DNA of 64,000 nucleotides from Thermodesulfobacteriota bacterium (GCA_036834365.1 DAITOA010000001.1:15892-79891); one strand, 5' to 3'. Numbered from the stretch's first letter, positions 1-21,228 are shown. Notes: generated by a model not told the origin, from the letters alone. Program-made: numbers and translations.

Positions 1-2151
1 GAAGCCGCCCGATCCGTCATCGGCCGGCATGGGTGTGTCGGCGCTCACCTCTTCCCAGAACTCCAGGAGGATGACCGTGAAATCGTCATCCAGTGCATCC
101 CTGCAGTTGAATGAACGCACATCGGTTTCAATGGCATCGATGATCTCGTTTCCCCGCAGAGACTGGACGGCCTTCCTGAAACACTTGATGAGACGCTCCT
201 TGCCGTACTGATTCCCGTCGGCATCTTCTGTTTCAATGAGGCAGTCGGTATACATGAGCAGGGCATCTCCCATCCCGATGCCTGTCTCGGCCTTTTCCTC
301 ATACCCGCCGTCCTCGAAGGAACCAAGGAAGAAACCGTCGGTATCGAGCTCCTTGATTTCGCCGGTCGCCCGCTTAAAGAGGAGGGGGGTGGGGTGGCCG
401 GCATTCGTGTAGGTAATGTTCTTGCCGAACCGGTCCGTCAGGACGAAGAAGGCGGTGATGTAATCCTCGTCGAGGACCGGCTTCAGGTCGCGGTTGAGCA
501 TATGCATGAGGATGGTGGGGCTTGCCACTGTGGCTGCAAGTGCATGAAAGCTCATCTTGAACATCGACGAGATGAGGGCCGCGGCCACGCCGTGTCCCGA
601 TACGTCCGCAATGATGAATCCGGTCTGACCTCCGCCCAGGTCGACTACGTCGTAGAGGTCCCCACCGATATGAATGGAAGGAATGTACTTGCAGGTGAAG
701 CTCACACCGTTGAGGTTTTCGAAGGTATCCGGCAGCAGACTCTTCTGGAGCCGGGCGGCCATTTCCAGCTCGCTGACCATGCGATGGTTCTGCGCCCTGA
801 TGATCTCGTTCTTCTCATCCATTTCTGCCAGGGTTATGGTCAGCCTGGCCGCCTGTTCCTCCATAAGATCCCTGGTCTCGGCGCTCTCCATGAGGAGACG
901 CTCCATATCCTCTTTCCGCCGTATCTCCTCTGTCACATCAGTGAAGAGTACAACGGAATATCTGCCTCCCTCCTTCGGTTCCACCGTGTGCAGGGTCTTC
1001 TCTATGGTATGTACGTTGAGATCTTCGGTCTGCAGGGAAACCTGCCGGCTCTTGTTCGAGAGGAGGTCCCTGACGACTCCGGGGGCCTCTGAGACGGATT
1101 TGCCCATGAGGTCTTTTGACCTCAGGGAGGTTATCTCCTCGGCCTTCCTGTTCCACATGATGATGCGCTCAAGATCCGAGACCAGGAGGAGGCCGGACGG
1201 AAACGTCTTGGTGAGCTGGACGATGAAATCGTCGCGTATCATGGGGGCAGGATACGCCACCCTGCCGGGGGCTGTATCCCTGCGGTAAATGAGTCGCACC
1301 TTGTTGCCGCATCCCTCGTAGATAACCTGGTTGAAGAAGTTCTTGGCGATCTGGATGCCGAGACCGCTTCCGATGTGTGCATGGGGATCGGGATTGAATT
1401 CTTTTCGGTAGTCAAAGCCGTTGCCCTGGTCGGTGACGATATATTCCAGTGTGTCCCTCTCCATATAAACCTGGAGTGTCACGACACGGTTCATATAATC
1501 TGGATTTTTCGCTCTCTGCTTCAGAAGTTCCTCGAAGGATCCCTTTTTCACTGCCCTGGCCTTTTCTTCCAGGGAGATGTTCAGGTTTCCGTGCTCCACG
1601 GCATTGAGGAGGATCTCGCCAAGCGCCATCTTGAGCATCTCCACATCGGGACACACGGCCCTGGCGTTCAAGACCGCCTGGTTGATGAAAAAGGGGAGCT
1701 TGTCTATATCGTTACCGAACCGGAGGGCCTTCTGCTCACTGAGGACGCAGTCGGTATCAGGCATGATGCCGATACACAGGGAACGCTGGTGGTCTTGAAT
1801 CCGTATGATACATTCCAAGAGCTTATCGACGGAGACGGGTCTTATGAGGTAATCCAGGACGCCCATGCGTATGCATTCAAGGGCAAGGAAACCGTCAACC
1901 TTGCCGGCGGCTACGATGAGCAGGGCGCCGGGACAGCTGCCGTGAATCTGTCTGAGGGTCTTCAGCCCCGTGTCGTCCTTGGGATCAAGTGCGACGAGGA
2001 CGAGGTCGGGCTTTTCCTCCATCAGGTGGACAAGACCCTCACCGGGGGAGAAGACGTGCAGTGCACGATATCCTTTCCGGGAGATTCTCTTTGCAAGCTC
2101 TCCGGAGGACTTTTCAGGATCGATGATGAGGATGCTCTGAATGACCTTCAT
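1..2151 (-). CDS. Receiver / GHKL Ser-kinase (RsbW-like HATPase) / PP2C (SpoIIE/RsbU-like) phosphatase fusion protein. ATG at 2151. 3' end (C-terminus) runs off the window start.
   Basis: Hand translation of minus-strand frame from 2151: MKVIQSILIIDPEKSSGELAKRISRKGYRALHVFSPGEGLVHLMEEKPDLVLVALDPKDDTGLKTLRQIH (receiver-like). N-box ALGEILLNAVEHGNLNISLEEK at approx. 1567-1632. PP2C motif GGDLYDVVDLGGGQTGFIIADVSGHGVAAALISSMFK at 556-669. Not in the ORF track because it has no stop inside the window. No listed ORFs in this frame across 2 kb. Confidence 0.75.
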   Translation of the reverse strand, partial: MKVIQSILIIDPEKSSGELAKRISRKGYRALHVFSPGEGLVHLMEEKPDLVLVALDPKDDTGLKTLRQIHGSCPGALLIVAAGKVDGFLALECIRMGVLDYLIRPVSVDKLLECIIRIQDHQRSLCIGIMPDTDCVLSEQKALRFGNDIDKLPFFINQAVLNARAVCPDVEMLKMALGEILLNAVEHGNLNISLEEKARAVKKGSFEELLKQRAKNPDYMNRVVTLQVYMERDTLEYIVTDQGNGFDYRKEFNPDPHAHIGSGLGIQIAKNFFNQVIYEGCGNKVRLIYRRDTAPGRVAYPAPMIRDDFIVQLTKTFPSGLLLVSDLERIIMWNRKAEEITSLRSKDLMGKSVSEAPGVVRDLLSNKSRQVSLQTEDLNVHTIEKTLHTVEPKEGGRYSVVLFTDVTEEIRRKEDMERLLMESAETRDLMEEQAARLTITLAEMDEKNEIIRAQNHRMVSELEMAARLQKSLLPDTFENLNGVSFTCKYIPSIHIGGDLYDVVDLGGGQTGFIIADVSGHGVAAALISSMFKMSFHALAATVASPTILMHMLNRDLKPVLDEDYITAFFVLTDRFGKNITYTNAGHPTPLLFKRATGEIKELDTDGFFLGSFEDGGYEEKAETGIGMGDALLMYTDCLIETEDADGNQYGKERLIKCFRKAVQSLRGNEIIDAIETDVRSFNCRDALDDDFTVILLEFWEEVSADTPMPADDGSGGF

Positions 2152-2202
2152 GGTTGTTCCGGCCCGTATGGCCGCTCAATGCATGGAAACGAAGCGTGAT
2201 TC

Positions 2203-3279
2203 TCAGCACTTCTCATTTCGAACCATGTTCATGATGGTGCCGGCGATGGAATGCAGTGATACGATCTTGGACACCCCGCCCATCTCTATGGCGACCTTGG
2301 GCATACCGAACACCACGCAGCTCTCTTCATCCTGTGCTATGGTGAAGGCGCCTGCATCCTTCATTTCCCGCAGGCCCCTCGCCCCGTCGTCACCCATACC
2401 GGTGAGGATGACCCCCAGGGCATTGGGTCCCAGTGTGTTGGCCGCCGACCTGAAAAGGACATCCACTGAGGGAATATGCCGGTTCACGGGAGGACCTTCC
2501 TTTACCCGCACGTAATATCCCTTGGGACCCTTCTGGACGATCATGTGCCTGCCGCCGGGGGCGATCAGTGCCTGACCCTGCTTCAATTCGTCATTGTCCC
2601 TCGCCTCGATGACATTCATGGCGGAAAGCCCGTTGACCCGTTTTGCAAAGGAGTTGGTGAACACAGGCGGCATGTGCTGTACGATCAGGGTCGGAGGGGC
2701 ATCGGCAGGCATCTTGTTGAGTATCTGTTCGAGGGCGACGGTTCCCCCTGTCGATGCGCCGATTATAAGGATCTTTGATCCATCCCGCACGGAGATCAAT
2801 CTTTCCGATTTGATTACGGCATCCATGCCCAGCTTCGGGGGAACGATGAGATTCGGGGGGGAGACGGCCTTTTTCAGTTTGGCCGAGGATGCCGCCCTGA
2901 CCTTGGAACAGAGATCGATCCGCAGGTCTTCTATTCCTTCACTGATCTTCACCTTCGGCTTGGCCAGGAAATCGATGGCGCCTAGCGACAGGGCCTTTAC
3001 CGTGGCATCTGCACCCTGTTCTGTGAGCGAGGAAAACATGACAACGGGCATGGGTGATGAGCGCATGAGCCGGGAGAGGAAGGTGAGGCCGTCCATCTTG
3101 GGCATCTCGATGTCCAGGGTCAGCACATCGGGTTTGAGTTCCTTGATCTTGCGTATGGCAATGAGTGGATCCGGTGCCGTTCCCACCACCTCGATCCCGG
3201 GGTCGGAGTCGAGGATATCCTTGAGGAGTTTCCTCACCAGGGCGGAGTCATCAATGATCAATACCTTTATTTTTTCCAT
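2203..3279 (-). CDS. cheB: Chemotaxis response regulator protein-glutamate methylesterase CheB (receiver + methylesterase)
   Basis: MEKIKVLIIDDSALVRKLL...TLDIEMPKMDGLTF receiver N-terminus plus CheB catalytic domain (GASTGG, HMPPVFT motifs). 358 aa. Confidence 0.9.
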   Translation of the reverse strand: MEKIKVLIIDDSALVRKLLKDILDSDPGIEVVGTAPDPLIAIRKIKELKPDVLTLDIEMPKMDGLTFLSRLMRSSPMPVVMFSSLTEQGADATVKALSLGAIDFLAKPKVKISEGIEDLRIDLCSKVRAASSAKLKKAVSPPNLIVPPKLGMDAVIKSERLISVRDGSKILIIGASTGGTVALEQILNKMPADAPPTLIVQHMPPVFTNSFAKRVNGLSAMNVIEARDNDELKQGQALIAPGGRHMIVQKGPKGYYVRVKEGPPVNRHIPSVDVLFRSAANTLGPNALGVILTGMGDDGARGLREMKDAGAFTIAQDEESCVVFGMPKVAIEMGGVSKIVSLHSIAGTIMNMVRNEKC

Positions 3280-3286
3280 ATCCGTC

Positions 3287-3883
3287 TCACTCGAAGATGG
3301 TCAGCTCGCCACCTTCCGCATGGAGTTTCTCCTTCTCCTGGAAGAGCTTGGTCTTGTATGCCTGTTCCGCCTCGATGATCCGGGAGTCGACCGTCGATTT
3401 GAGCCTCTTGAGCAGGACCTTTGCGGTATCGGGAAAGTACAGGATCTTCCTGCCCGCGTAACCGCCCACATCCTCCTTCACGATCTCGATCTGTTCCATC
3501 TTCAGGAATGCGCGAACGAAATCGATGTTGGACTCGGGAACATTGCCGTCGGTCTTGCGGAAGTTCAGGACATGTCCGCCTCCGAACACCTTCGCCTGGA
3601 AGTGTTTCTGGGAGCCTCCCTTTTTGATCATCTCATTGATCAGCTGTTCCATGGCGAACATACCGTACTTGGCGGACTCGGAAAGGAACATCTCTTCGGA
3701 ACGCACGTCGCCGGGGAGCATGAAGTGGTTCATGCCGCCAATGCCGGTCTTTGTATCCTTGATGCACACGGATATGCATGAACCCAGGACCGTGGCGATG
3801 ACATCCGAGGAACTCACATAGAACTCGCCAGGATAGATGATCACCATGGTCCGTTTGAATTTATCACTGTGTCTTCTATACAT
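3287..3883 (-). CDS. cheD: Chemoreceptor glutamine deamidase CheD
   Basis: VLGSCISVCIKD...GIGGMNHFMLPG matches the CheD signature. 198 aa (start may be an internal Met at 3847). Confidence 0.8.
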   Translation of the reverse strand: MYRRHSDKFKRTMVIIYPGEFYVSSSDVIATVLGSCISVCIKDTKTGIGGMNHFMLPGDVRSEEMFLSESAKYGMFAMEQLINEMIKKGGSQKHFQAKVFGGGHVLNFRKTDGNVPESNIDFVRAFLKMEQIEIVKEDVGGYAGRKILYFPDTAKVLLKRLKSTVDSRIIEAEQAYKTKLFQEKEKLHAEGGELTIFE

Positions 3884-3884
3884 G

Positions 3885-4730
3885 TTACACCTTCTGATAC
3901 ACCGTGTGTTTCAGGAACTTGAAGAGGTGTTTCATGGACATGAGGGATTCCGAATGGCCGATGAACATGAGCCCCATGTCCTTGAGGTGAAGGTGGAACT
4001 TCTGTACCAGGTCCGACTTCGTCTCTTCGTTGAAGTAGATCATGACGTTTCTGCAGAAGATAACGTCGAAGGATCTCTTCATGGGAAAGAGACGGTCCAT
4101 GAGGTTGAGCTTGCGGAAGGTGATCATGTTTTTGATCTCCTTGCTCGCTTCATACCCTTCGACGGTGCGGACCAGGTACTTCGTGATGTAGTTCACTGGC
4201 ACCGGGGCGATCTGCTGACTGGAATAGACCCCCCGGGCCGCCTTGGAAAGGATTTCGGTATCAAGGTCCGTCGCCAGGATCTTGATGTCCCAGCCTCTTT
4301 CCTCCCGGAGGGCGTCGGACACGGTCATGGCAATGCTATAGGGTTCTTCCCCCGACGAGCATCCTGCTGACCATATCCTCAGACGTCTCTCGCGGCCTTT
4401 TCTGGCCACCTCAATGAGGGTGGGAAGTACCTCGTCATGAAGGAACTCAAAATGATGCTTCTCGCGGAAGAAGTCGGTCTTGTTCGTGGTGACGCGGTTG
4501 ATGAGATTGATGATCTCGTTACCGGCATCGGAACTTTCTTTCAGGTACTGATAGTACTCGGAAAAGTTTTTTAAATTCAAAAATCTGAGTCTTTTAGACA
4601 ATCGTGCGACAACCAGATTTCTCTTCCTGTCGGACATGTGGATGCCCGTCTCCCGGTAGATGATTTCCCGAAAGAGTTGGAACTCCTTGTCGGAGATACT
4701 GTATGATTGCGCGCACAGCGTTGAATTCAT
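3885..4730 (-). CDS. cheR: Chemotaxis protein methyltransferase CheR
   Basis: N-terminal CheR all-alpha domain plus SAM-MTase region (FFREKHHFEFL..., IWSAGCSSGEEPYSIAM). 281 aa. Stop abuts cheD start. Confidence 0.9.
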   Translation of the reverse strand: MNSTLCAQSYSISDKEFQLFREIIYRETGIHMSDRKRNLVVARLSKRLRFLNLKNFSEYYQYLKESSDAGNEIINLINRVTTNKTDFFREKHHFEFLHDEVLPTLIEVARKGRERRLRIWSAGCSSGEEPYSIAMTVSDALREERGWDIKILATDLDTEILSKAARGVYSSQQIAPVPVNYITKYLVRTVEGYEASKEIKNMITFRKLNLMDRLFPMKRSFDVIFCRNVMIYFNEETKSDLVQKFHLHLKDMGLMFIGHSESLMSMKHLFKFLKHTVYQKV

Positions 4731-5218
4731 ACGCCATCGACCATATTAAGCTCCTCATCCGAGAGCAGTCTGTCAACATCGAGGAGGATCACGAACTTGT
4801 TGTCCTTGATGCCCATGCCGAAGATGAATTCGGTGCTTACCCCGGTAGAGAAATGCGGACGAGGCTTGATGTCCTCCTTGTTCAGCGTGATGACATCGCT
4901 TACGGCATCAACCACGAGCCCCATGATCCTCCCCGATACATCCAGGATCATGATGACCGTGAACTGGTCGTATTCCTTGATCTCCATGCCGAAGCGCTCG
5001 CGCAAGTCGATGACCGGGACGACGATTCCCCTGAGGTTGAGCACGCCCTTGATGAACCTCGGCACATTGGGGATCGAGGTGCAGCTCTGATATGCGATGA
5101 TCTCGTTGAGCTTGAGGATGGAGATCCCATAGGTCTCCATCCCCAGTTGGAAGGTCACATACTGGTTTGATAGCGCCTTTGCCGTTTCGTTCTGCTGAGC
5201 CATGGGTGTACTCCCCAT
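4727..5218 (-). CDS. cheW: Chemotaxis coupling protein CheW
   Basis: 163 aa, CheW-like domain (YVTFQLGMETYGISILKLNEII...). ATGA overlap with cheR. TAATG overlap with upstream MCP. Confidence 0.9.
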   Translation of the reverse strand: MGSTPMAQQNETAKALSNQYVTFQLGMETYGISILKLNEIIAYQSCTSIPNVPRFIKGVLNLRGIVVPVIDLRERFGMEIKEYDQFTVIMILDVSGRIMGLVVDAVSDVITLNKEDIKPRPHFSTGVSTEFIFGMGIKDNKFVILLDVDRLLSDEELNMVDGV

Positions 5219-6861
5219 TAGAATTCCTCGAAATCGTCTTCGAATTCGGATACTGTTTCGGTTTTTGCCGGTTCCATGCGTGTTTTGTGCTGGGGCTGTT
5301 TTTTCGTTGGGGATTTCTTTGTCCTGGTTGATTCGGTCTCGCGGGTGACCTTGAAGCGGTCCACGGTATCGGCCAGGTCTTTGGCCTCGTTGCTGAGGCT
5401 GTCCGATGTGCTGGCGAGTTCCTCCACCGTGGAAGCGTTCTGCTGGGTGGTGGTGTCGATCTGGGCGATGGCCCGGTTCAGCTCGTCCACGCCTGAAGCC
5501 TGCTCGCTGGATGCCGCGGCGATCTCCTCCATGACCTGGGAGAGGTCCTGGATGTGCCTGATGATCTGTTCCAGGGACTCCCCGGATTTCTTCACCATGA
5601 TGTCGCCAGCGGCGATCTTGTTCACCGTGTCCTCGATGAGGGCCTTGATCTGGCGGGCGGCCTCCGCCGACCTTTGGGCCAGTGCCCGTACTTCTTCGGC
5701 GACCACGGCGAATCCTTTACCGTGCTCGCCAGCCCGGGCGGCCTCGACGGCGGCGTTGAGGGCCAGGAGGTTGGTCTGGAAGGCCACCTCGTTGACCGTG
5801 ACGATGATGTCGCCGATCTTCTTGGATGCGGCGGAGATCTCGCTCATGCCGAGGACGAGCTCCTGGGCGGCTTCTCCGCTGGAGCCGGCCATGCGCACCA
5901 TCTCCGTGGCCTTCTGGCGGCCGTCGGTGGCGTTCTCGGCGTTGTGTTTGATGGAGGAGGTCATCTCTTCGATGGTGGCCGCCACCTCTTCGATGGCCGA
6001 TGCCTGCTCCTGGGTGGCCTGTGAGAGGCCCTGGGCTCCGGCGGCCACCTCCTTGGTGGCGGAATCCACCTGGAGCGAGGAATCCTTCACCCTGGTGATG
6101 ACCTCTTCGAGGTTCTCCACGAAGGTGTTGAACCAGGATGCGATCTCTCCCACCTCATCGGTGGAGTTCACCGGCAGCCGCTTGGACAGGTCGGCCTCGC
6201 CCTGCGCTATGTCCATCATGCTGGATGATATCTCCCGAGCCCTCCTGGCTATCTTGCCGGCGAAGAGTGCGCCGAGCACGGCCACGACGATGGCGGTGAT
6301 GAGGAGGAAAATCAGGAGCTCCATCTGGAGGCTGCGGACCGCTGCGAGGGCCTCGGATGAGGGGACGGCGGCCCAGACGATCCAGTCCAGGGGTTTGATG
6401 TATGCAAGGTAGCTTATCTTGCTGACCCCGCCGAAGGTGTAGTCCGATCTTCCCTGCTTCTTGTCGACGGCCGCCCTTACCCAGTCGTAGGTCTCGTAAA
6501 GGGTCTTGTTGTTGCGGAGTTCCGCCTTCGGGTGGTAGACACAGGTGCCGTCGGGCTGGAAGATGGCAAGGTACCCGGTGTCGAAATACTTTTCCTTGGC
6601 GGCCTCCTTGATGAGGTCGGCCTTGAGGGACTTCATGAGCTGTTCTTTGATGATGTCCAGGTTACCCTCGATGGAAGCGCTTCTCACCTCGGCCATCCTG
6701 GCGTAGGAATCCACCTTCACCTTGAGATACTCGAATGCCTGGTTCTTCAGATGTCCGCTGATGCTTATGCCTACATAGATGATAACGACAACAAGCGGTA
6801 TCAAGCCTGCGGAAAGGATCAGGGCCGTGAGCTTCTCGCGAAGTTTCCATCGTATGCTCAT
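5218..6861 (-). CDS. Methyl-accepting chemotaxis protein (copy 1 of 2, identical)
   Basis: 547 aa: N-terminal TM helix, periplasmic sensor region, second TM helix, HAMP, and an MA signalling domain with a highly conserved hairpin (ALNAAVEAARAGEHGKGFAVVAEEVRALA). RBS aggag upstream. Confidence 0.9.
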   Translation of the reverse strand: MSIRWKLREKLTALILSAGLIPLVVVIIYVGISISGHLKNQAFEYLKVKVDSYARMAEVRSASIEGNLDIIKEQLMKSLKADLIKEAAKEKYFDTGYLAIFQPDGTCVYHPKAELRNNKTLYETYDWVRAAVDKKQGRSDYTFGGVSKISYLAYIKPLDWIVWAAVPSSEALAAVRSLQMELLIFLLITAIVVAVLGALFAGKIARRAREISSSMMDIAQGEADLSKRLPVNSTDEVGEIASWFNTFVENLEEVITRVKDSSLQVDSATKEVAAGAQGLSQATQEQASAIEEVAATIEEMTSSIKHNAENATDGRQKATEMVRMAGSSGEAAQELVLGMSEISAASKKIGDIIVTVNEVAFQTNLLALNAAVEAARAGEHGKGFAVVAEEVRALAQRSAEAARQIKALIEDTVNKIAAGDIMVKKSGESLEQIIRHIQDLSQVMEEIAAASSEQASGVDELNRAIAQIDTTTQQNASTVEELASTSDSLSNEAKDLADTVDRFKVTRETESTRTKKSPTKKQPQHKTRMEPAKTETVSEFEDDFEEF

Positions 6862-8553
6862 ACTGTGATCTCCTCTGTGTATAGACTCATTCTAGAATTC
6901 CTCGAAATCGTCTTCGAATTCGGATACTGTTTCGGTTTTTGCCGGTTCCATGCGTGTTTTGTGCTGGGGCTGTTTTTTCGTTGGGGATTTCTTTGTCCTG
7001 GTTGATTCGGTCTCGCGGGTGACCTTGAAGCGGTCCACGGTATCGGCCAGGTCTTTGGCCTCGTTGCTGAGGCTGTCCGATGTGCTGGCGAGTTCCTCCA
7101 CCGTGGAAGCGTTCTGCTGGGTGGTGGTGTCGATCTGGGCGATGGCCCGGTTCAGCTCGTCCACGCCTGAAGCCTGCTCGCTGGATGCCGCGGCGATCTC
7201 CTCCATGACCTGGGAGAGGTCCTGGATGTGCCTGATGATCTGTTCCAGGGACTCCCCGGATTTCTTCACCATGATGTCGCCAGCGGCGATCTTGTTCACC
7301 GTGTCCTCGATGAGGGCCTTGATCTGGCGGGCGGCCTCCGCCGACCTTTGGGCCAGTGCCCGTACTTCTTCGGCGACCACGGCGAATCCTTTACCGTGCT
7401 CGCCAGCCCGGGCGGCCTCGACGGCGGCGTTGAGGGCCAGGAGGTTGGTCTGGAAGGCCACCTCGTTGACCGTGACGATGATGTCGCCGATCTTCTTGGA
7501 TGCGGCGGAGATCTCGCTCATGCCGAGGACGAGCTCCTGGGCGGCTTCTCCGCTGGAGCCGGCCATGCGCACCATCTCCGTGGCCTTCTGGCGGCCGTCG
7601 GTGGCGTTCTCGGCGTTGTGTTTGATGGAGGAGGTCATCTCTTCGATGGTGGCCGCCACCTCTTCGATGGCCGATGCCTGCTCCTGGGTGGCCTGTGAGA
7701 GGCCCTGGGCTCCGGCGGCCACCTCCTTGGTGGCGGAATCCACCTGGAGCGAGGAATCCTTCACCCTGGTGATGACCTCTTCGAGGTTCTCCACGAAGGT
7801 GTTGAACCAGGATGCGATCTCTCCCACCTCATCGGTGGAGTTCACCGGCAGCCGCTTGGACAGGTCGGCCTCGCCCTGCGCTATGTCCATCATGCTGGAT
7901 GATATCTCCCGAGCCCTCCTGGCTATCTTGCCGGCGAAGAGTGCGCCGAGCACGGCCACGACGATGGCGGTGATGAGGAGGAAAATCAGGAGCTCCATCT
8001 GGAGGCTGCGGACCGCTGCGAGGGCCTCGGATGAGGGGACGGCGGCCCAGACGATCCAGTCCAGGGGTTTGATGTATGCAAGGTAGCTTATCTTGCTGAC
8101 CCCGCCGAAGGTGTAGTCCGATCTTCCCTGCTTCTTGTCGACGGCCGCCCTTACCCAGTCGTAGGTCTCGTAAAGGGTCTTGTTGTTGCGGAGTTCCGCC
8201 TTCGGGTGGTAGACACAGGTGCCGTCGGGCTGGAAGATGGCAAGGTACCCGGTGTCGAAATACTTTTCCTTGGCGGCCTCCTTGATGAGGTCGGCCTTGA
8301 GGGACTTCATGAGCTGTTCTTTGATGATGTCCAGGTTACCCTCGATGGAAGCGCTTCTCACCTCGGCCATCCTGGCGTAGGAATCCACCTTCACCTTGAG
8401 ATACTCGAATGCCTGGTTCTTCAGATGTCCGCTGATGCTTATGCCTACATAGATGATAACGACAACAAGCGGTATCAAGCCTGCGGAAAGGATCAGGGCC
8501 GTGAGCTTCTCGCGAAGTTTCCATCGTATGCTCATACTGTGATCTCCTCTGTG
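5219..8553. repeat. Perfect tandem direct duplication, 2 x 1661 bp (5219..6879 and 6893..8553) separated by a unique 13-nt junction (6880..6892). Each unit carries RBS plus entire MCP CDS.
   Basis: ORF pairs 5218..6861/6892..8535, 5276..6412/6950..8086, 5554..6024/7228..7698, 6662..6850/8336..8524 have identical translations at a constant +1674 offset. Flanks diverge at TAA vs TAG stop and after the shared 18-nt actgtgatctcctctgtg. Confidence 0.9.
6892..8535 (-). CDS. Methyl-accepting chemotaxis protein (copy 2 of 2, identical)
   Basis: Translation is 100% identical to copy 1 (547 aa). All internal antisense ORFs are also identical at an offset of 1674 nt. Confidence 0.9.
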   Translation of the reverse strand: MSIRWKLREKLTALILSAGLIPLVVVIIYVGISISGHLKNQAFEYLKVKVDSYARMAEVRSASIEGNLDIIKEQLMKSLKADLIKEAAKEKYFDTGYLAIFQPDGTCVYHPKAELRNNKTLYETYDWVRAAVDKKQGRSDYTFGGVSKISYLAYIKPLDWIVWAAVPSSEALAAVRSLQMELLIFLLITAIVVAVLGALFAGKIARRAREISSSMMDIAQGEADLSKRLPVNSTDEVGEIASWFNTFVENLEEVITRVKDSSLQVDSATKEVAAGAQGLSQATQEQASAIEEVAATIEEMTSSIKHNAENATDGRQKATEMVRMAGSSGEAAQELVLGMSEISAASKKIGDIIVTVNEVAFQTNLLALNAAVEAARAGEHGKGFAVVAEEVRALAQRSAEAARQIKALIEDTVNKIAAGDIMVKKSGESLEQIIRHIQDLSQVMEEIAAASSEQASGVDELNRAIAQIDTTTQQNASTVEELASTSDSLSNEAKDLADTVDRFKVTRETESTRTKKSPTKKQPQHKTRMEPAKTETVSEFEDDFEEF

Positions 8554-8714
8554 CGATAATTCATGTCACCCTCGAAGCCATAGGAGAATTTCAAATGTGT
8601 TGACTTGTTGACCTGGATTGCTTCCAAGGACGCAACCGCCAGGTCCTTCAAGATCATGAATGAAAAGCTCATGGGTTCTTCTTTCGCATATGCACTAACA
8701 TCATGGGCGCCTCA

Positions 8715-10808
8715 TCATGCCTGGAACGCCATACGTTCGATGCTGTGTACGTCCAGGATGAGGGATACCCTGCCGTTGCCCAGAATGGTCGCGCCTGAAG
8801 TTCCTTCTATCTTCTTGAAGTTCTTGTCGATGCTCTTGATCACAGCCTGGGTCTGGCCGAGAACATCGTCCACCAGGATGCCGAACCTGCTGTCAGCCCC
8901 ATGGAGCACCACCACAAGAGCCTGGGTGGGATCGGTCTTCTCGGAAGGCAGGTTGAAGAGGTGGTACAGACGGACGAGGGGAAGGTAATCGCCTCTGATG
9001 TCAACGAGTTCCCCTTTGCCTTCAACGGTTTTGACCTCGGTCCGTGAGGGACGCACCGACTTGTCAATGACGGAAAGAGGGATGGTAAGAACCTCATCTC
9101 CAACCTTGACCATCATGCCGTCGATGATTGCCAGCGTGAGCGGAAGCTTCACGCGGAAGATGGAACCTTTCCCGTCTTCCGAAGAGATCTCCACGCTCCC
9201 CCTCAGATCCTCTATGTTCCGCTTCACTACATCCATGCCGACTCCCCTGCCGGAGAGCTCGCTGACCTTCTCGGCAGTGGAGAGCCCAGGAGCGAACAGC
9301 ATATCGAAGATGTCTTTTTCGGAATAAGACCTGCCGGCATCAGCCTGACCTTTTTCGATCGCCTTTGCCAGCACCTTTTTCTTGTCAATGCCCTTGCCGT
9401 CGTCCGATATCTCGATGAAGATGTTGCCTTCGCGCTGGAATGCCTTGAGCCAGATGGTTCCGACCTCAGGTTTGCCGAGGCGGCGCCTTTCATCGGGAGG
9501 TTCGATGCCGTGATCAATGGAGTTCCGGATCATGTGTTTCAAGGGATCGCTGATCTGCTCGATGACGTTCTTGTCCAACTCGGTCTCGGTCCCGCTCATC
9601 TTGATCTCGATCTTCTTTCCCAGTTCAAAGGAAAGGTCCCTGACAACCCTGCGGAAACGGTTGAACGTGCCCTCAACAGGAACCATACGAACTCTCATGA
9701 CCTGTTCCTGCAGATCCCGGGAGATCCGCTCCAAAGAGGAAGTTGCCCCCTGTAGTGAACGGGTCAGGGAGGCATCGGTCACCTCGCTGGCGCACTGGGA
9801 CATGCGGGCTACGGAGATCACCATCTCCCCCACCAGGTTCACGAGCTTGTCAAGCTTGTCGGTGTCGACCCTGATGGTGGACGATTTCGCTATCTTTCTG
9901 CTCTGGGATTGAGCGAGGGCCATCTTCTCCACTGCTTCCTTGGAGACCTTGCCCTTTTCCACCAGAGCCTGACCGGTGGTCTTGTGCTCCCTCAGAGTCT
10001 CCATGACATCGTCTTCCCTGACGAATCCTTTTTCCACGAGGATCTCGCCGATGGGTTTTTCGGCCAGGGTAAGATCGATACCTTCCTTGTATTGTGACGA
10101 TATGTCGACGATCACGATCTCATTTTCATCCATGACAAAGATGAAGATGTTGTTTATGTCGGAAATCGTTCTGGTCGTGCGAAGGATGATCTCCCAGGAT
10201 GTATAACAGGTGGTGGGCACGAGATTGTAGAAGTCGGGGATCGTCCCGGTGAAGGCCCGTGACTCGAGGATCTCTCCGAATTCTCGCAGCTCTTGTATGA
10301 GCATGATGGGATCCTGGCCGGTGGAGAGGATGTCCGCACGGAACTTCATGTTGATGGACAGCACCTTTTCTCCGGTTCTTTCCTGGGGTTTCCTCTGGCT
10401 TTCAAGTGTATCGCCGGTCCCTTGTGCTGTGCCGGAGAATCGCTTCAGAGTCTGGACGGATTCCTCGATCTCCTTGCTGTCGATCTCTTCGCCTTCGCTT
10501 CCCGCGGCTATCATCCTTTTCAGAAAATCCACGGAGGTGAGCAGGGTGGAGATGAGCTTTTTCGTTATGCTCAGTTCCTTTTTACGGATCCTGTCAAGGA
10601 TGTTCTCGATGGTATGGGTGTAATTGCTGACATTCTCGAATCCCACTAGCCCTGCGGAACCCTTTATGGTGTGGGCGGCGCGGAAGACCCTGTTGATGGT
10701 ATCTTCGTCCCCGCGTTCTTCTTCCAGTTTGATGAGGCCGTTTTCGAGCTCCCGGATCTCATCCTCGCTCTCTTCCATGAATACCTTGACGAGTTCATCC
10801 ATTGCCAT
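8715..10808 (-). CDS. cheA: Chemotaxis histidine kinase CheA (Hpt, dimerization, HATPase, C-terminal CheW-like domain)
   Basis: 697 aa. Hpt motif RAAHTIKGSAG, HATPase G-boxes, C-terminal CheW-like region. Confidence 0.9.
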   Translation of the reverse strand: MAMDELVKVFMEESEDEIRELENGLIKLEEERGDEDTINRVFRAAHTIKGSAGLVGFENVSNYTHTIENILDRIRKKELSITKKLISTLLTSVDFLKRMIAAGSEGEEIDSKEIEESVQTLKRFSGTAQGTGDTLESQRKPQERTGEKVLSINMKFRADILSTGQDPIMLIQELREFGEILESRAFTGTIPDFYNLVPTTCYTSWEIILRTTRTISDINNIFIFVMDENEIVIVDISSQYKEGIDLTLAEKPIGEILVEKGFVREDDVMETLREHKTTGQALVEKGKVSKEAVEKMALAQSQSRKIAKSSTIRVDTDKLDKLVNLVGEMVISVARMSQCASEVTDASLTRSLQGATSSLERISRDLQEQVMRVRMVPVEGTFNRFRRVVRDLSFELGKKIEIKMSGTETELDKNVIEQISDPLKHMIRNSIDHGIEPPDERRRLGKPEVGTIWLKAFQREGNIFIEISDDGKGIDKKKVLAKAIEKGQADAGRSYSEKDIFDMLFAPGLSTAEKVSELSGRGVGMDVVKRNIEDLRGSVEISSEDGKGSIFRVKLPLTLAIIDGMMVKVGDEVLTIPLSVIDKSVRPSRTEVKTVEGKGELVDIRGDYLPLVRLYHLFNLPSEKTDPTQALVVVLHGADSRFGILVDDVLGQTQAVIKSIDKNFKKIEGTSGATILGNGRVSLILDVHSIERMAFQA

Positions 10809-10811
10809 GGC

Positions 10812-11192
10812 TTACCTCATGAATTTTTTTGTGACATAGACCAGCTGTTCAGGTTTGAAAGGCTTTACGAGCCATCCTGATGCCCCCGCCTGCTTGCCTT
10901 TGAGCTTCATCTCTTCCTGGGATTCGGTGGTAAGCACCAGGATAGGGAGGTACCTGAACGGTGTTTTCTTCACCTCTTTGATGAAGGTGATGCCATCCAT
11001 GACCGGCATATTGATATCGCTGATGATCATGCCGATCACATCACCGTGTTTGTGGGCATCGGTGAGTTTCTCCAGCCCGTCCGCACCGTTGACCGCATTG
11101 ATCGTTTCAAACCCGGCGGCTTTCAGCGTATAGTTGACGGATGCCCTCAGAGTGGCAGAATCATCCACCACGAGGATCTTTTTCTTGATCAT
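10812..11192 (-). CDS. cheY: CheY-like single-domain response regulator
   Basis: 126 aa, MIKKKILVVDDSATLR...ISDINMPVMDGI...LTTESQ...KPF. Confidence 0.85.
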   Translation of the reverse strand: MIKKKILVVDDSATLRASVNYTLKAAGFETINAVNGADGLEKLTDAHKHGDVIGMIISDINMPVMDGITFIKEVKKTPFRYLPILVLTTESQEEMKLKGKQAGASGWLVKPFKPEQLVYVTKKFMR

Positions 11193-11494
11193 GGGAGGGC
11201 CTCCTTCAAGGCAATGCTGAACCCCGAGATCTCGATGATTTCCCGAATGGCAGGATTGATTGCCCTGATGCGCATGGCACCGTCCGCATCGAATGTTTTC
11301 TTGAGGGAGTACAGAAGCTGGAGTCCTGAAATGTCTATCTCCTCAACCCCATCAAGATCCAGGGTGATGACCTGCGATGAATCTTCCAGGAGCGACTCCA
11401 GAGAAGAATGAATGTTCTCGATGTCCGAAACCACGAGATTGCCCTTGCAAACGATTGCACCCTGCCTGTCTATGATGATTTCCATTGTCATCAC
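11189..11494 (-). CDS. STAS-domain protein (anti-sigma-factor antagonist-like)
   Basis: 101 aa with conserved phospho-Ser context ...VEEIDISGLQLL.... ATGA overlap with cheY. Confidence 0.75.
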   Translation of the reverse strand: MMTMEIIIDRQGAIVCKGNLVVSDIENIHSSLESLLEDSSQVITLDLDGVEEIDISGLQLLYSLKKTFDADGAMRIRAINPAIREIIEISGFSIALKEALP

Positions 11495-11799
11495 CTCATG
11501 GATATGGGGAATAGCTTGTCCAGCTTCACTGCTTTGAAGATGTTGAAGAGATTTTCGTGGATACCCTTGATCTCGAAGCTCGCCTTTGCACTGTCAAGGC
11601 TTTTGAAGAACATGAGGATCTTGCCTATGCCTGAAGAACCCATGGTCGGGACCATGGCGAGATCCATTATGACCTTCTTCGGTTTCTGGCCAGCGATCTT
11701 GTTGAGCTCGGTACGCAGGAGTTCCGCGGCTGGAGTGTCCACAGCTCCTGTGACCTTCACATAGAGGGTGTCTCCCGATGACCTGGTTGTAACATCCAT
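11491..11799 (-). CDS. STAS-domain protein (anti-sigma-factor antagonist-like), second paralogue
   Basis: About 102 aa from internal ATG at 11799, which has an aaggag RBS 8 nt upstream (ORF track extends to 11883). Motif ...PTMGSSGIGKIL... Overlaps the downstream STAS gene by 4 nt. Confidence 0.7.
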   Translation of the reverse strand: MDVTTRSSGDTLYVKVTGAVDTPAAELLRTELNKIAGQKPKKVIMDLAMVPTMGSSGIGKILMFFKSLDSAKASFEIKGIHENLFNIFKAVKLDKLFPISMR

Positions 11800-11897
11800 A
11801 CCATATCTCCTTTGTGGCAGTTGAGCTTGATAGTCCGAGGATGTGCCATCCCTGTTACACCCCATCGGAAATTCAAAAACCAATCTTTATGGAAAGT

Positions 11898-12190: not shown

Positions 12191-13060
12191 ATGAAGAACG
12201 CATTCATACTTGTCATCACCGGTCTGTCAGGGTCCGGAAAGTCGACGGCTCTCAAGGCCATTGAGGATGAGGGCTTCTTCTGCATGGACAACATGCCCAT
12301 CGACCTCATGGACAAGTTTCTCGAGCTCTATGAGTCGGCGTCCTTCACTATCCACAAGGTATGTATATGTATGGATGCCAGGGCAGGTGCACCATATTTT
12401 GCCCAGAAGGCCCCCTTGCTCATAGCCCAGCTTCGGAATCTGACGGAGAATGTACGGCTCATCTTCCTGGAGTCAGGCAAGGAAAACCTCCTGAATCGGT
12501 ACAAGGAAACGAGGAGGAGGCATCCGTTGAGCGAGTCGTACCCGAACCTGCTCGATGCCATCGAGGCAGAGGTAGACCTGCTGGCGCCGCTTCGAGGGAT
12601 TGCCGATTTCATCGTGAACACCTCACAGCTCAATGTTCACCAGCTTGCAGCAAGGATCAAGGAGATCATCTCGACGGAAGATCGGTCCAGAGATATGTAC
12701 ATTGAGGTCAGTTCGTTCGGTTTTAAAAAGGGGATCCCCATGGACTCCGACATCGTCATGGACGTCAGGTTCCTCCCGAATCCGTATTTCGTCGACGAAC
12801 TCAAGGATAAAACCGGGTCAGACAGGGAGGTAAAAGACTTCCTGCGGTCGTCAGAAGTCTATGAACAATTCCTCTCGAAATTCAAGGACCTCATCAGTTT
12901 TATCCTTCCGCTCTGCAAGAAGGAAGGCAGGTCCTATCTCAATATCTCCATAGGTTGTACCGGCGGAAGGCACAGGTCTGTAGCCATTGCGGAAGAGATC
13001 AGGCAGGCAATAGAGGATGCCGGGTATCCAAGCAGGCTGAAGCATCGTGACATCGTATGA
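12191..13060 (+). CDS. rapZ: RNase adaptor / nucleotide-binding protein RapZ (YhbJ)
   Basis: 289 aa, P-loop VITGLSGSGKSTALKALED at N-terminus, RapZ-typical length and C-terminal domain. Confidence 0.85.
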   Translation: MKNAFILVITGLSGSGKSTALKAIEDEGFFCMDNMPIDLMDKFLELYESASFTIHKVCICMDARAGAPYFAQKAPLLIAQLRNLTENVRLIFLESGKENLLNRYKETRRRHPLSESYPNLLDAIEAEVDLLAPLRGIADFIVNTSQLNVHQLAARIKEIISTEDRSRDMYIEVSSFGFKKGIPMDSDIVMDVRFLPNPYFVDELKDKTGSDREVKDFLRSSEVYEQFLSKFKDLISFILPLCKKEGRSYLNISIGCTGGRHRSVAIAEEIRQAIEDAGYPSRLKHRDIV

Positions 13061-13074
13061 GGAGGTTTTAATCT

Positions 13075-13488
13075 ATGGTCGGTATCATTGTTGTCGCGCA
13101 CGGTGATCTTGCACGTGCATTCGAGGAAACAGCCCAGATGATCGTGGGGCCGACAGAGGCCTTCAAAGCCTGTTCCTTTGTGCAGGGTACGGACGTAGAT
13201 GACCTGAGAAGGCTGCTGAAGGCATCCATCAAAGAAGTGAACAGGGGTGAAGGTGTCATCATTCTTACTGACATGTTCGGCGGCACCCCGTCCAATATCA
13301 GCCTGTCATTTTTGGAGAATGGGAAGATCGAGGTGATCACCGGGGTTAATCTCCCCATGGTGATTACAGCGCTTACCAAGAGAAAAGGGAAGGAAATATC
13401 TGAACTGGCTCGCTTGTTGAAAGAAGGGGGCTCGAAGAATATCCATATCGCTTCAGAGATCCTCGCAACGAATGTGGCTGAAAAATGA
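13075..13488 (+). CDS. PTS mannose/fructose/sorbose-family EIIA component
   Basis: 137 aa, MVGIIVVAHGDLA... (EIIA-Man fold with active His in VAHG). Confidence 0.8.
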   Translation: MVGIIVVAHGDLARAFEETAQMIVGPTEAFKACSFVQGTDVDDLRRLLKASIKEVNRGEGVIILTDMFGGTPSNISLSFLENGKIEVITGVNLPMVITALTKRKGKEISELARLLKEGGSKNIHIASEILATNVAEK

Positions 13489-13973
13489 ATGTATTGCTCG
13501 TCAGAGTGGATGACAGATTCATTCACGGGCAGATCCTTGAATCATGGATACCTCACCTGAAGGCCCAGGGCGTCATCGTTGCCAATGATGGTCTTGCTGG
13601 CGATCAGTTTCAGAAGACCATCATGTCCATGGCGATCCCCGACAGGATAAAGCTCAGGATCGTATCTCTGGATGAGGCCCTCAGACTGAGGGATGACTGT
13701 GATTTCAATGAAAAACGAATCTTTGTCATCGTGTCCAGCATAAAGGATGCCCACCGTCTGTTTGTGGGGGGTTTTCCATTCACCCGGCTCAACATCGGGA
13801 ACAACAAGTCCACGACTGAATCAAGGCAGATTTCCTATTCTGTTTGGGTCGACCGCGAAGATCTCCGGCTTGTCAGGGAACTCCTGGACAAAGGGCTTGA
13901 GGTGACGCTTCAATCCGTTCCCCGTGAGCGTCTTATTGACATGAGATCTATTCTTGATATGGTAGATCTATGA
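13485..13973 (+). CDS. PTS mannose-family EIIB component
   Basis: 162 aa, LVRVDDRFIHGQIL motif (phospho-His). ATGA overlap with the EIIA gene. Confidence 0.8.
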   Translation: MNVLLVRVDDRFIHGQILESWIPHLKAQGVIVANDGLAGDQFQKTIMSMAIPDRIKLRIVSLDEALRLRDDCDFNEKRIFVIVSSIKDAHRLFVGGFPFTRLNIGNNKSTTESRQISYSVWVDREDLRLVRELLDKGLEVTLQSVPRERLIDMRSILDMVDL

Positions 13974-14644
13974 TCTTGACCGGATTTCTCGGGGTGCTCG
14001 CCGGCGCCCTTCTGTGGATGGACAGGGTCTTCGTGTTTCAATTCATGATCAGCAGGCCCATGATCATGGGTCCCTTGATCGGCCTTGTCATGCATGATCT
14101 GCATGCCGGGCTCTTGGTGGGCCTTTCCCTGGAGCTTCTGTGGCTGAATGCACCACCCGTTGGTGCATATCTCCCCAATGACGAAAGCTTCTGCACCGCC
14201 GTAGGAGTCCCGGCGGCTGTTCTTGCCGGGTCTTGGGCTTCACCGTCTCAGGCGGCGGGATTGGCCATCCTCCTTTGTCTGCCGGCAGCCCTCGTGGGGA
14301 GGACTCTCGACATGCGGCTGCGGACAATGAACGAGGAGCTCTTGGATGTAAACGAACGCATGTCCGAGAAAAAGATATCACAAGCCATGGTCAAGGCGGT
14401 CCTCCGGTCTTTCATTCTTGCCCTTGTGACGCTCTGTGCATGTGTCATGATTGCCGATGTCATGGTCATTCACGTCGGGAAGATTTTCCCTGATGCGGTT
14501 CTCGCCTCGCTCCCTGTCGTTCCTTTCGCTTGCGTGCTGATCGGTCTGGCGGCCCTCGTATCCCGGGAAATGCCCAGGAGGTCGCATGTAGGCATGTTCG
14601 CCCTGGGTCTCAGCCTGGTGCTCCTGCTCACATGGATCGTATAA
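13970..14644 (+). CDS. PTS mannose/sorbose-family EIIC-like membrane component (short)
   Basis: 224 aa polytopic membrane protein resembling ManY/LevF-type IIC. No IID gene follows. Confidence 0.65.
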   Translation: MILTGFLGVLAGALLWMDRVFVFQFMISRPMIMGPLIGLVMHDLHAGLLVGLSLELLWLNAPPVGAYLPNDESFCTAVGVPAAVLAGSWASPSQAAGLAILLCLPAALVGRTLDMRLRTMNEELLDVNERMSEKKISQAMVKAVLRSFILALVTLCACVMIADVMVIHVGKIFPDAVLASLPVVPFACVLIGLAALVSREMPRRSHVGMFALGLSLVLLLTWIV

Positions 14645-19168: not shown

Positions 19169-19217
19169 GATGAACAAGGAGATTGGTTTGTATACGGCGT
19201 CGGGCCCTGCAAGGATT

Positions 19218-19661
19218 ATGACCGGAACATCAGGAATGACGCTCATGGAGGTCATGATCGTTGTGGTGATTATCGGCATCCTCGCTGGCGTAGCCATGCC
19301 CGGAATGATCGGGTGGTTCAGCAAGAGAAGCCTGGACTCCGCATCGAGGGAGATGTTCTCCAATTTCCAGAGGGCAAGGAGCGAAGCGATCACCCGCGCC
19401 ACGAACGTTCAGATCCAAATTGATTCTGGCAATGAATGGTACAGGATTCAGGATGCCAACGGCAATGTGATCGTGCCGCAGACAAACATGCCAGAGGGCA
19501 TAGATCTGGAATCCGCAGCCACGACGACGGGGTTTACCTTCCGTGGTTTTTCTACAACGCCGGAAATTACGGTTACCATCACGAGCGAGGATGCGCCTGC
19601 TGCAGACAACTGGAGAAGAATAAGACTCAACCCCGGCGGAACGGTGAGTATAGAGCCATGA
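19218..19661 (+). CDS. Type IV minor (pseudo)pilin, FimT/FimU/GspH-like
   Basis: Prepilin N-terminus GMTLMEVMIVVVIIGILAGVA. About 147 aa from the internal ATG. The ORF track starts at 19131, overlapping the comEC end. Confidence 0.6.
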   Translation: MTGTSGMTLMEVMIVVVIIGILAGVAMPGMIGWFSKRSLDSASREMFSNFQRARSEAITRATNVQIQIDSGNEWYRIQDANGNVIVPQTNMPEGIDLESAATTTGFTFRGFSTTPEITVTITSEDAPAADNWRRIRLNPGGTVSIEP

Positions 19662-20296
19662 AAAGGTTAATGGTACTGGCAAATAGCAAGGGACTTACCC
19701 TCATTGAGCTGATGATAGTCCTGGTTCTGTCCCTTCTGCTCATGGGGGCAGTTTTCATGACCTTCCAGCTCCAACACAACTCGAGCCGTGCCCAGACCCA
19801 GGTGGCCGCCACCCAGCAGGATCTCCGGGCTGCGATGGACGTTATTGCCATGGACATCATGCATGCAGGTCTGTGTCAGAACCCATCAAGTAGTATTCAA
19901 GGCATACCGACAGGAACCAGCGGCACAAACACCCTTCAGCTTCAGATGGATTATAATGATGACGGAGCAACTACCGGAACAGGCGAACTTGTTACCTACC
20001 GGCTGAATAACGGCAACCTGGAACGCGTCGATGTGAATGCAGGGGTTACCCAGGTCATTGCAAGGAATGTGACGGTTTTGACCTTCCAGTATCTGGGCAG
20101 GACGAAAAGCAACAGTACACAACAGATCGACCCGGGCGGTGGAACCCTCTCCCAGGCACAGGCCAAGGCCGTGAGGTTTATCGATGTGACAATCACCAAG
20201 GAAGGCGAGCAGGTGGACTCCCAGACAGGGAATGCAGTGCAGAGGACTCTGTCGCGCTGGGTCTGCAGGAGGAACGGTGCTATCGATGAGCTCTAG
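19658..20296 (+). CDS. pilW: Type IV pilus minor pilin PilW-like
   Basis: KGLTLIELMIVLVLSLLLMGA prepilin motif, plus ...LRAAMDVIAMDIMHAG resembling PilW. ATGA overlap with the previous gene. Confidence 0.6.
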   Translation: MKRLMVLANSKGLTLIELMIVLVLSLLLMGAVFMTFQLQHNSSRAQTQVAATQQDLRAAMDVIAMDIMHAGLCQNPSSSIQGIPTGTSGTNTLQLQMDYNDDGATTGTGELVTYRLNNGNLERVDVNAGVTQVIARNVTVLTFQYLGRTKSNSTQQIDPGGGTLSQAQAKAVRFIDVTITKEGEQVDSQTGNAVQRTLSRWVCRRNGAIDEL

Positions 20297-21190: not shown

Positions 21191-21228
21191 AAATGCCTGG
21201 GGACAAGATCAGGCAAAGGAGTGGTGAT

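Follow-up and report, generated by a model that had tools for sequence, protein, structure and literature searches.

A chemosensory operon of uncultured Desulfobacterota, apparently coupled to a partner-switching module whose kinase/phosphatase ends in a receptor-like tail

The stretch of 64,000 nucleotides (nt) from Thermodesulfobacteriota bacterium GCA_036834365.1 (DAITOA010000001.1:15892-79891; the window, below, is this whole stretch) carries at positions 1-11799, on the minus strand, a cluster of eleven co-directional genes at the positions originally predicted. Their order, 5' to 3', is STAS1-STAS2-cheY-cheA-MCP-MCP-cheW-cheR-cheD-cheB-enzyme, where MCP denotes a methyl-accepting chemotaxis protein, the receptor of the system, and the enzyme is a protein of 720 amino acids (aa) that joins a receiver domain (REC), an RsbW-type serine kinase, a PAS domain and a PP2C phosphatase. 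We propose that this is an F7-type chemosensory operon of a Desulfomonilia- or Syntrophaceae-like host, permanently coupled to a partner-switching module (a serine kinase and phosphatase acting on a STAS protein), and that the coupling would work by docking rather than by phosphotransfer; we put the probability of this model as a whole at roughly 55%. Its starting points can be read directly, namely gene content, catalytic motifs, synteny and the conservation of a C-terminal tail, and from these we infer every functional arrow.

The enzyme and the chemosensory genes keep company across a whole protein family. That family comprises 81 clusters at 90% identity, reaching down to about 40% identity, or some five or six clusters at 50% identity among 1.84 billion proteins, well apart from other PP2C proteins. 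It occurs in about 14 species of the genome collection, all of them uncultured Desulfobacterota with Desulfomonilia, Syntrophaceae or "Deltaproteobacteria" labels. The enzyme gene directly follows cheB in all 11 Desulfobacterota loci with upstream DNA, and the 8 loci that reach far enough in the 5' direction all begin STAS1-STAS2-cheY-cheA, then continue with one or two MCP genes and cheW-cheR-cheD-cheB. The original prediction was to fall if homologous clusters in close relatives never carried these genes; the synteny comparison finds them in all eleven. The enzyme itself comes in several arrangements: the fused 720-aa form, a [REC-kinase] plus [PAS-PP2C] pair, a [kinase] plus [REC-PAS-PP2C] pair, and a kinase-PAS-PP2C protein without REC. 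Kinase, PAS-PP2C, STAS1 and tail are kept through all these fusion and fission variants; the phospho-acceptor Asp of the receiver is often lost, and the receiver itself is lost once. (At L014:10001-12170, in a long-read metagenome-assembled genome, a frameshift appears to split the enzyme gene into two overlapping open reading frames (ORFs), 201 and 561 aa long; we take this for a probable assembly error and not for a separate arrangement.) One locus, L010, keeps the association in a different genomic neighbourhood. Because the association survives both the rearrangements and this altered neighbourhood, a functional link between the che genes and the enzyme is strongly supported. We give almost no credence to the opposite view, in which the STAS and enzyme genes are mere neighbours of a conventional chemotaxis operon and functionally unlinked to it. 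Promoters could be housed in the gaps of 51 nt (ahead of the enzyme gene) and 179 nt (behind cheA), and the rapZ/phosphotransferase system (PTS) genes upstream and the radical SAM gene downstream are also syntenic in close relatives. Simple neighbourhood does not, however, account for an association that extends to about 40% identity and outlasts fission, for an enzyme that bears the C-terminal motif of the receptors while its non-che relatives lack it, or for the same parts list in gammaproteobacterial F7 clusters (PMC7184735).

This C-terminal motif is the most distinctive property of the enzyme. The sequence xF[V/I/E][E/D]F ends 81 of 81 family members (GFVEF in 54, EFEEF in 15, GFIEF in 8, and four other variants), with both Phe residues invariant and position 4 a Glu in 80 and an Asp in one. 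It is preceded by an acidic linker of 16-24 residues, rich in Gly, Ser and Pro, which occurs as 71 distinct sequences with an entropy of about 3 bits per position. In an AlphaFold2 monomer model of the enzyme, built from 50 homologues, the tail is predicted to be disordered from residue 705 (predicted local distance difference test score, pLDDT, below 50 over residues 705-720); a role for it as an intramolecular element is unsupported, the tail being disordered in that model. The MCPs of the cluster also end in such a motif, [D/G]FEEF, behind a variable linker, in all 18 genes from 13 related loci. The enzyme tail thus resembles the pentapeptide of the receptors encoded in the same operon, which is unexpected on a protein that is not a receptor. 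None of 39 other PP2C matches has it. Among 148 further best-matching cluster representatives of the whole protein library it is present in only 3, all family members, and in none of the non-family proteins, HsbR/CrsR-like ones included; two non-family representatives do end aromatic-xx-aromatic, but within the last PP2C strand and with no tail. The stand-alone modules L025 and L090 are likewise without it. In chemoreceptors, the pentapeptide tethers CheR and CheB, and binding is determined by the aromatic residues at its positions 2 and 5 (PMC7390727); xFxxF variants of the pentapeptide are documented in Geobacter (PMC2577667). In the F7 pathway of P. aeruginosa, the receptor pentapeptide is bound by both CheR2 and CheB2 (PMC7698151).

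The components of the operon, with the domains of the enzyme, are as follows in window coordinates:

11491..11799, minus strand: STAS1, 102 aa; Pfam STAS 1e-13; single-domain, with TMGSSGIG
11189..11494, minus strand: STAS2, 98-101 aa; Pfam STAS 7e-12 plus STAS_2; with EIDISGLQ
10812..11192, minus strand: cheY; Response_reg 6e-24; single-domain and canonical, with DD, D, T and K present
8715..10808, minus strand: cheA (P1 to P5); Pfam Hpt, H-kinase_dim, HATPase_c and CheW
8536..8714, minus strand: spacer of 179 nt between cheA and MCP; contains a small ORF at about 8532-8657
6892..8535, minus strand: MCP copy a; Pfam Cache-HAMP-MCPsignal; C-terminus DFEEF
5218..6861, minus strand: MCP copy b; identical to MCP copy a
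4727..5218, minus strand: cheW; Pfam CheW 5e-39
3885..4730, minus strand: cheR; Pfam CheR 7e-70; beta-subdomain loop 4 aa shorter than in Salmonella CheR
3287..3883, minus strand: cheD; Pfam CheD 1e-29, NCBIfam CheD 3e-60
2203..3279, minus strand: cheB; Pfam CheB_methylest 1e-65 plus Response_reg 2e-24
1777..2151, minus strand: enzyme, receiver domain (aa 1-125); Response_reg 32.8 bits; degenerate
1276..1749, minus strand: enzyme, RsbW/SpoIIAB-type GHKL serine kinase (aa ~135-292); HATPase_c_2 1e-10
742..1239, minus strand: enzyme, PAS (aa ~305-405) and coiled-coil linker (aa ~407-470); weak PAS match
58..729, minus strand: enzyme, PP2C/SpoIIE phosphatase (aa ~475-698); SpoIIE 1e-40
1..57, minus strand: enzyme, acidic flexible linker, rich in Gly, Ser and Pro, before the C-terminal GGFVEF; end beyond the window

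The domain assignments of the original prediction (two STAS domains, Response_reg, HATPase, PP2C and the Che proteins) are borne out by Pfam, which adds the PAS match, and intact motifs uphold its claim that the parts of a partner switch (STAS, RsbW-type kinase and PP2C) lie inside a Che operon that is complete, CheB, CheR and CheD included. Pfam and the AlphaFold2 model agree on the order REC-HATPase_c_2-PAS-PP2C, and the model is confident for REC, GHKL, PAS and PP2C alike. The kinase motifs are intact and conserved in the family (N-box EILLNAVEHGN, G1 DQGNGF and G2 GSGLG, each invariant among 50 relatives), and the metal-binding residues of the PP2C domain, D498, D516, D636 and D689/D690, do not vary across 50 aligned sequences. 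We predict a bifunctional activity for this enzyme. The PAS domain between the two halves scores slightly under the Pfam cut-off (22.1 bits against 22.6; E-value 1.6e-4), and NCBIfam sensory_box is likewise slightly under its own cut-off; the linker ETKDLMEEQAA...LQKSLLP that follows is nearly invariant. Foldseek neighbours of the PP2C domain are the PP2C of P. aeruginosa RssB, Rv1364c, SiaA and SpoIIE. The REC plus HATPase_c_2 half matches PDB 9qih at 2e-14. (A "SenB" label on that entry led to unrelated selenoneine papers; Foldseek names it Leptospira LvrC.)

The weakness lies in the receiver. Its Response_reg match is barely over the Pfam cut-off of 30.2 bits; Asp11 and the acceptor Asp56 remain in the window protein, with Ala at the Thr position and Arg at the Lys position. 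In 11 of 31 family members, relatives as close as 70-77% identity among them, the acceptor position is not Asp but E, G, N, H or S, and the enzyme of L023 has no receiver at all, yet retains the operon and the tail. Docking is favoured over phosphotransfer because degeneration of the receiver is widespread in the family. The alternative, implied by the original prediction, is that CheA phosphorylates the receiver and so toggles the enzyme between a kinase mode and a phosphatase mode, on the pattern of HptB acting on HsbR. The two Asp residues and the modelled receiver fold (pLDDT 84-91) of the window enzyme fit that wiring, HsbR and CrsR are regulated via their receivers (PMC6482189), and the split form in L010 carries a canonical receiver on its phosphatase; nevertheless, the substituted Thr and Lys, the frequent loss of the acceptor, the receiverless enzyme of L023 and the marginal Pfam score leave this wiring doubtful, and we regard it as improbable.

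The two STAS proteins differ in a way that the original prediction, which gave both of them a phosphorylatable serine, had missed; for STAS1 the claim holds. In the alignment, the first Ser of its TMGSSGIG falls on the phosphorylated Ser of TM1442, RsbV and SpoIIAA, and GSSGIG is invariant in 9 of 9 relatives. (Against the NCBIfam anti-sigma factor antagonist family, STAS1 scores 49.2 bits, slightly under the 53.45 cut-off.) For STAS2 the claim fails: the Ile of its DISGLQ (EIDISGLQ) motif aligns with Ser58 of SpoIIAA, so there is no Ser at the canonical phospho-site, where 8 relatives have I, L or T. Because STAS2 has Ile where the phospho-Ser belongs, STAS1 is the only credible kinase substrate of the two, and we propose it as the switch protein on which kinase and phosphatase would act. 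The STAS2 gene overlaps the start of cheY by 4 nt, and the order STAS2-cheY is identical in all 8 relatives.

Paralogs of STAS1, 61-68% identical to it, are found elsewhere in related genomes (L091:10001-10306; L092:1021-1332 and 1524-1832). One of them is an orphan; of another pair, one copy lies directly downstream of a gene for a PAS-GGDEF diguanylate cyclase. All retain the site (G/D)SSG(I/M)GKIL. The presence of paralogs with the same phospho-site outside che clusters, one of them beside a PAS-GGDEF gene in an arrangement reminiscent of HsbA-HsbD, hints at targets beyond the array.

In a third alternative, the module is an input to the array, or a modulator of it, rather than its output. 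The PAS-regulated enzyme would set the state of STAS1, and STAS1 and/or STAS2 would bind CheA, CheY or a receptor, tuning phosphotransfer, with CheY acting on motility as the output. Several features speak for it. STAS2 is encoded right before cheY-cheA, as is CheS, a protein that binds CheA and speeds the dephosphorylation of CheY1 (PMC12654446); a canonical CheY is encoded in the operon; the enzyme carries a PAS sensor of its own; a similar proposal exists for Campylobacterota, whose REC-PP2C-kinase proteins would act through STAS on a chemoreceptor (PMC9239204); and docking of the tail at the array is equally compatible with it. On the other side stand the STAS1 paralogs just described, with their GSSGIG-type site, and the precedents of CrsA and HsbA, which act on sigma/anti-sigma factors and on a diguanylate cyclase (PMC6482189). 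We consider modulation of the array unlikely, although it remains the alternative to which we give the most weight.

In the output model that we prefer, the Che core (a Cache-type 36H receptor with CheA, CheW, CheY, CheR, CheD and CheB) would sense a periplasmic ligand and adapt by methylation. The enzyme would phosphorylate and dephosphorylate the Ser of STAS1, and the phosphorylation state of STAS1 would decide its binding partner. STAS2 would more likely act on CheA or CheY, or serve as a decoy, since it is not phosphorylatable in the canonical way and sits like CheS and like the first STAS of F7 stage 1. Coupling to the array would come about by docking and not by phosphotransfer from CheA to the receiver: the enzyme probably binds the pathway-specific partner of the receptors, CheB (perhaps phosphorylated) and/or CheR, because it has the same xFxEF tail on a flexible linker. 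Phosphorylated CheY would be an alternative messenger. More specifically, and with rather less than even odds, we suggest receptor mimicry: the tail may take the docking site of the receptors' DFEEF on CheB (possibly CheB-P) and/or CheR, so that activity or adaptation of the array would be read out as phosphorylation of STAS1 with no phosphotransfer to the receiver. The final target would lie outside the operon; the candidates are a sigma factor that the kinase domain would hold (compare CrsR and RpoS) and a diguanylate cyclase to which STAS1 would bind (compare HsbA and HsbD).

The original prediction had stated that the final target, a sigma factor for example, is not in the window. There is in fact a gene of the sigma-70 family at 32343-33101 on the minus strand, about 20 kb off, encoding 252 aa with best matches to RpoH and RpoS models, below their cut-offs; nothing ties it to the cluster. 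This gene and, in another genome, the PAS-GGDEF gene near the STAS1 paralog are at best loose candidates for the target.

Several observations weigh against the preferred model. The host is uncultured. The window enzyme retains its acceptor Asp, so phosphotransfer is possible in the host species. Neither a sigma factor gene nor a GGDEF gene adjoins the cluster, and the canonical CheY of the operon could simply drive flagella. The single transcript is a prediction from gene spacing and from absent terminator-like sites. The best PDB match of the operon's CheR is Salmonella CheR (5e-54), but when the Gly-rich beta-subdomain insertion, by which pentapeptide-dependent CheR proteins are recognised, is judged by Q182, R187, G188, G190, G194 and R197, all 9 CheR proteins of the family show a deletion of 4 aa at G194-R197 and residues other than Gly at 188 and 190, and their loop has the length of that in pentapeptide-independent P. 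aeruginosa CheR1. For pentapeptide-binding CheB proteins no sequence signature exists (PMC7698151). Because CheR lacks the Gly-rich insertion and CheB has no signature to look for, CheB and/or CheR stay candidate partners only.

The original prediction described a tight minus-strand unit with overlapping genes. The eleven co-directional genes and the last gap of 51 nt agree with this; not all junctions are overlaps, the spacings being, from the 5' end, -4, -4, +3, +179 (cheA-MCP), +30 (MCP-MCP), -1, -4, +1, +7 and +51 nt. A sequence scan detects no terminator-like site on the minus strand inside the cluster. Upstream of STAS1, no sigma-70-like promoter matches above chance, and we claim no sigma-54 promoter: TGGCAC stands 50 nt upstream, but without a properly spaced -12 GC. 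The start of STAS1 is likely the ATG at 11799 rather than the TTG at 11883, since AAGGAG precedes the ATG and the resulting 102-aa protein is called independently in six metagenome contigs. At the other end the enzyme gene crosses the edge of the window, with its last 3 codons and stop outside and only the first F of GGFVEF inside; identical metagenome contigs and L001 give the full 720 aa ending GGFVEF. Digester samples (ERZ795048, JGI 3300010350) contain the contig. The unit ends at the enzyme gene, because a convergent radical-SAM gene comes next in the identical contigs. In the spacer between cheA and MCP, metagenome pipelines call an ORF of 41-46 aa at about 8532-8657 on the minus strand, with an ATGA overlap with the MCP start. 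This spacer measures 10-117 nt among relatives (10-29 nt in L007, L010 and L023), and the ORF is absent from L007. We rejected it as not conserved; with a spacer of merely 10-29 nt in some relatives, it is probably no gene.

Each receptor has two transmembrane segments, a periplasmic single-Cache domain, HAMP, a 36H signalling domain, a linker and the DFEEF end. Its alignment to E. coli Tsr runs with no gap from HAMP up to where the signalling domain ends (query 226-505), whereas its matches among 40H and 44H receptors are far weaker and of another length; its best NCBIfam match is the signalling domain of Vibrio Aer2 (7e-87). The two MCP genes form a tandem duplication of 1661 nt, 100% identical (5219-6879 = 6893-8553, period 1674), that includes 18 nt upstream of the ATG. 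Among assemblies from the same population, L001, L003, L004 and L006 have two copies and L002 and L005 have one; in more distant relatives there is either a single MCP or a pair that differ from each other. The copy number is thus either polymorphic or poorly resolved by assembly. CheA has E. coli-type CheA as its best NCBIfam match, at 542 bits. Between its P2 and P3 domains, at aa ~250-300 (window 9909-10058), a segment PIGEILVEKGFV...TTGQALVEKGKV...ALAQSQ resembles a tandem MshEN motif for binding of cyclic di-GMP. It scores 30 bits with NF053729, against a cut-off of 38, has no Pfam support, and is conserved in 8 of 8 relatives.

Upstream of the cluster and divergent from it, at window 12191-14644 on the plus strand, lie rapZ and genes for a mannose-type PTS (EIIA, EIIB and EIIC), an arrangement kept in L001, L002, L005 and L007. 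L010 has a different upstream gene, and PTS genes for EIID, HPr and enzyme I downstream of its cluster. Past window position 1, as seen at L001:13292-19699, follow the convergent radical-SAM gene, a Cache-HAMP histidine kinase, a sigma-54 activator response regulator, a single receiver and a REC-histidine kinase; this stretch is syntenic in L001, L007, L008 and L009, and not in L010. Farther off in the window, the ORFs at 21193-24516 (plus strand, 1107 aa) and 25032-26141 (minus strand, 369 aa) have no Pfam or NCBIfam match; both adjoin ComEC-like and pseudopilin-like genes (16844-20296).

The Che system is F7-like, as judged from its 36H receptor, from CheA and CheR proteins that are nearest to enteric ones, from the presence of CheD, and from the gene order Y-A-...-R-D-B. 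The original prediction had placed it among the alternative-cellular-function (ACF) systems; in the phylogenomic sense of that class, the 36H receptor with its Aer2-like signalling domain, the gene order and the best curated matches argue against ACF and for the F7-like assignment. The gene order is that of F7, with MCP and CheW swapped and both STAS genes at the 5' end, and the best curated or solved matches (E. coli-type CheA, Salmonella CheR and Vibrio Aer2) are compatible with that affinity. The cytoplasmic PAS-HAMP receptor like Aer2 that marks stages 1 and 2 of F7 is replaced here by a transmembrane Cache receptor.

For the ancestral F7 systems of V. cholerae (cluster III), P. aeruginosa (Che2) and S. 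oneidensis (Che1), the output is a long-standing gap, and the published link to partner switching consists of gammaproteobacterial gene neighbourhood and CrsR/CrsA biochemistry. That the association recurs in an unrelated phylum is an argument for an ancient, functional link. To specialists, the association itself will come as no surprise; it is the receptor-like tail, together with a naturally degenerate receiver, that gives a testable hypothesis for the coupling. If receptor mimicry is true, the enzyme would be the first client of this tether that is not itself a receptor, and F7 systems of the ancestral kind would gain a concrete mechanism for their output.

The most ancient form of F7 contains STAS, cheY, cheA, two cheW, aer2, cheR, cheD, cheB, mcpA, a second STAS and a serine phosphatase (Ortega et al. 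2020, PMC7184735), and its function is stated there to be unclear. The stage 1/2 clusters of V. cholerae (cluster III), S. oneidensis (che1) and M. alcaliphilum (PMC7184735) share with the present locus a STAS before cheY-cheA, CheW, a 36H receptor, cheR-cheD-cheB, a second STAS and the serine phosphatase, and the receptor signalling domain here is nearest to Aer2. The differences are that both STAS genes are 5', that there is one CheW and no McpA-like receptor, that the host belongs to Desulfobacterota, that the receptor is a transmembrane Cache protein where Aer2 is a cytoplasmic PAS-HAMP protein, and that the enzyme has another domain order, a PAS, a pseudo-receiver and the pentapeptide-like tail.

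Among partner switches, CrsR-CrsA of S. oneidensis and HptB-HsbR-HsbA of P. aeruginosa likewise combine a receiver, a PP2C and an RsbW-type kinase/anti-sigma domain in one polypeptide with a single-domain STAS partner. As here, crsR and crsA lie inside a che locus: the che1 locus holds both, as a partner switch that controls RpoS (PMC9855816, PMC6482189). HsbR and CrsR have the order REC-PP2C-kinase and are regulated through their receivers (PMC6482189), whereas the enzyme here has the order REC-kinase-PAS-PP2C. Their receivers are functional phospho-acceptors; the receiver here is degenerate with respect to the conserved Asp, Thr/Ser and Lys. Within the best 150 matches, the HsbR/CrsR-like representatives have no aromatic C-terminal tail. 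SypE, a bifunctional protein that acts with SypA in Vibrio fischeri, also directs an RsbW-like kinase, a receiver and a PP2C at a STAS protein; its order, kinase-REC-PP2C (PMC10120452), matches that of the split forms in L010 and L024. Unlike the present enzyme, it is encoded outside a che operon, has neither PAS nor tail, and controls the syp polysaccharide and biofilm. CheS of Sinorhizobium meliloti and Agrobacterium (PMC12654446) is likewise a single-domain STAS just upstream of cheY-cheA in an F7-type operon; STAS2 is a candidate analogue of it, by gene position only, and CheS has no accompanying kinase or phosphatase. LvrC of Leptospira (PDB 9qih), L090 and L025 have in common with the enzyme the REC plus HATPase_c_2 unit with the extended N-box NAxEHGNLxIxxEEK. 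L090 also has the order REC-kinase-PP2C and adjoins a STAS gene, and L025 is a comparable stand-alone split pair, REC-kinase and PAS-PP2C; all three differ in having canonical receivers, no che genes and no tail.

The pentapeptide tether, finally, is known from receptors (NWETF in E. coli, GWEEF in P. aeruginosa McpB and EFEKF in Geobacter; PMC7390727, PMC2577667, PMC7698151). Here too the C-terminal motif has aromatic residues at positions 2 and 5, with acidic residues elsewhere, and stands behind a variable unstructured linker; the known tether is pathway-specific. What sets the present system apart is that the motif is found additionally on a kinase/phosphatase, that the cognate CheR is without the canonical beta-subdomain insertion, and that the receptors are 36H, where xFxxF is described as typical of 34H receptors. 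Taken together, the association between che genes and a partner switch is already known from F7 stages 1 and 2 and from CrsR/CrsA at che1, and this locus is a distinct variant of it in another phylum. New here are the 36H Cache receptor, the different domain order, the pseudo-receiver and the conserved xFxEF tail.

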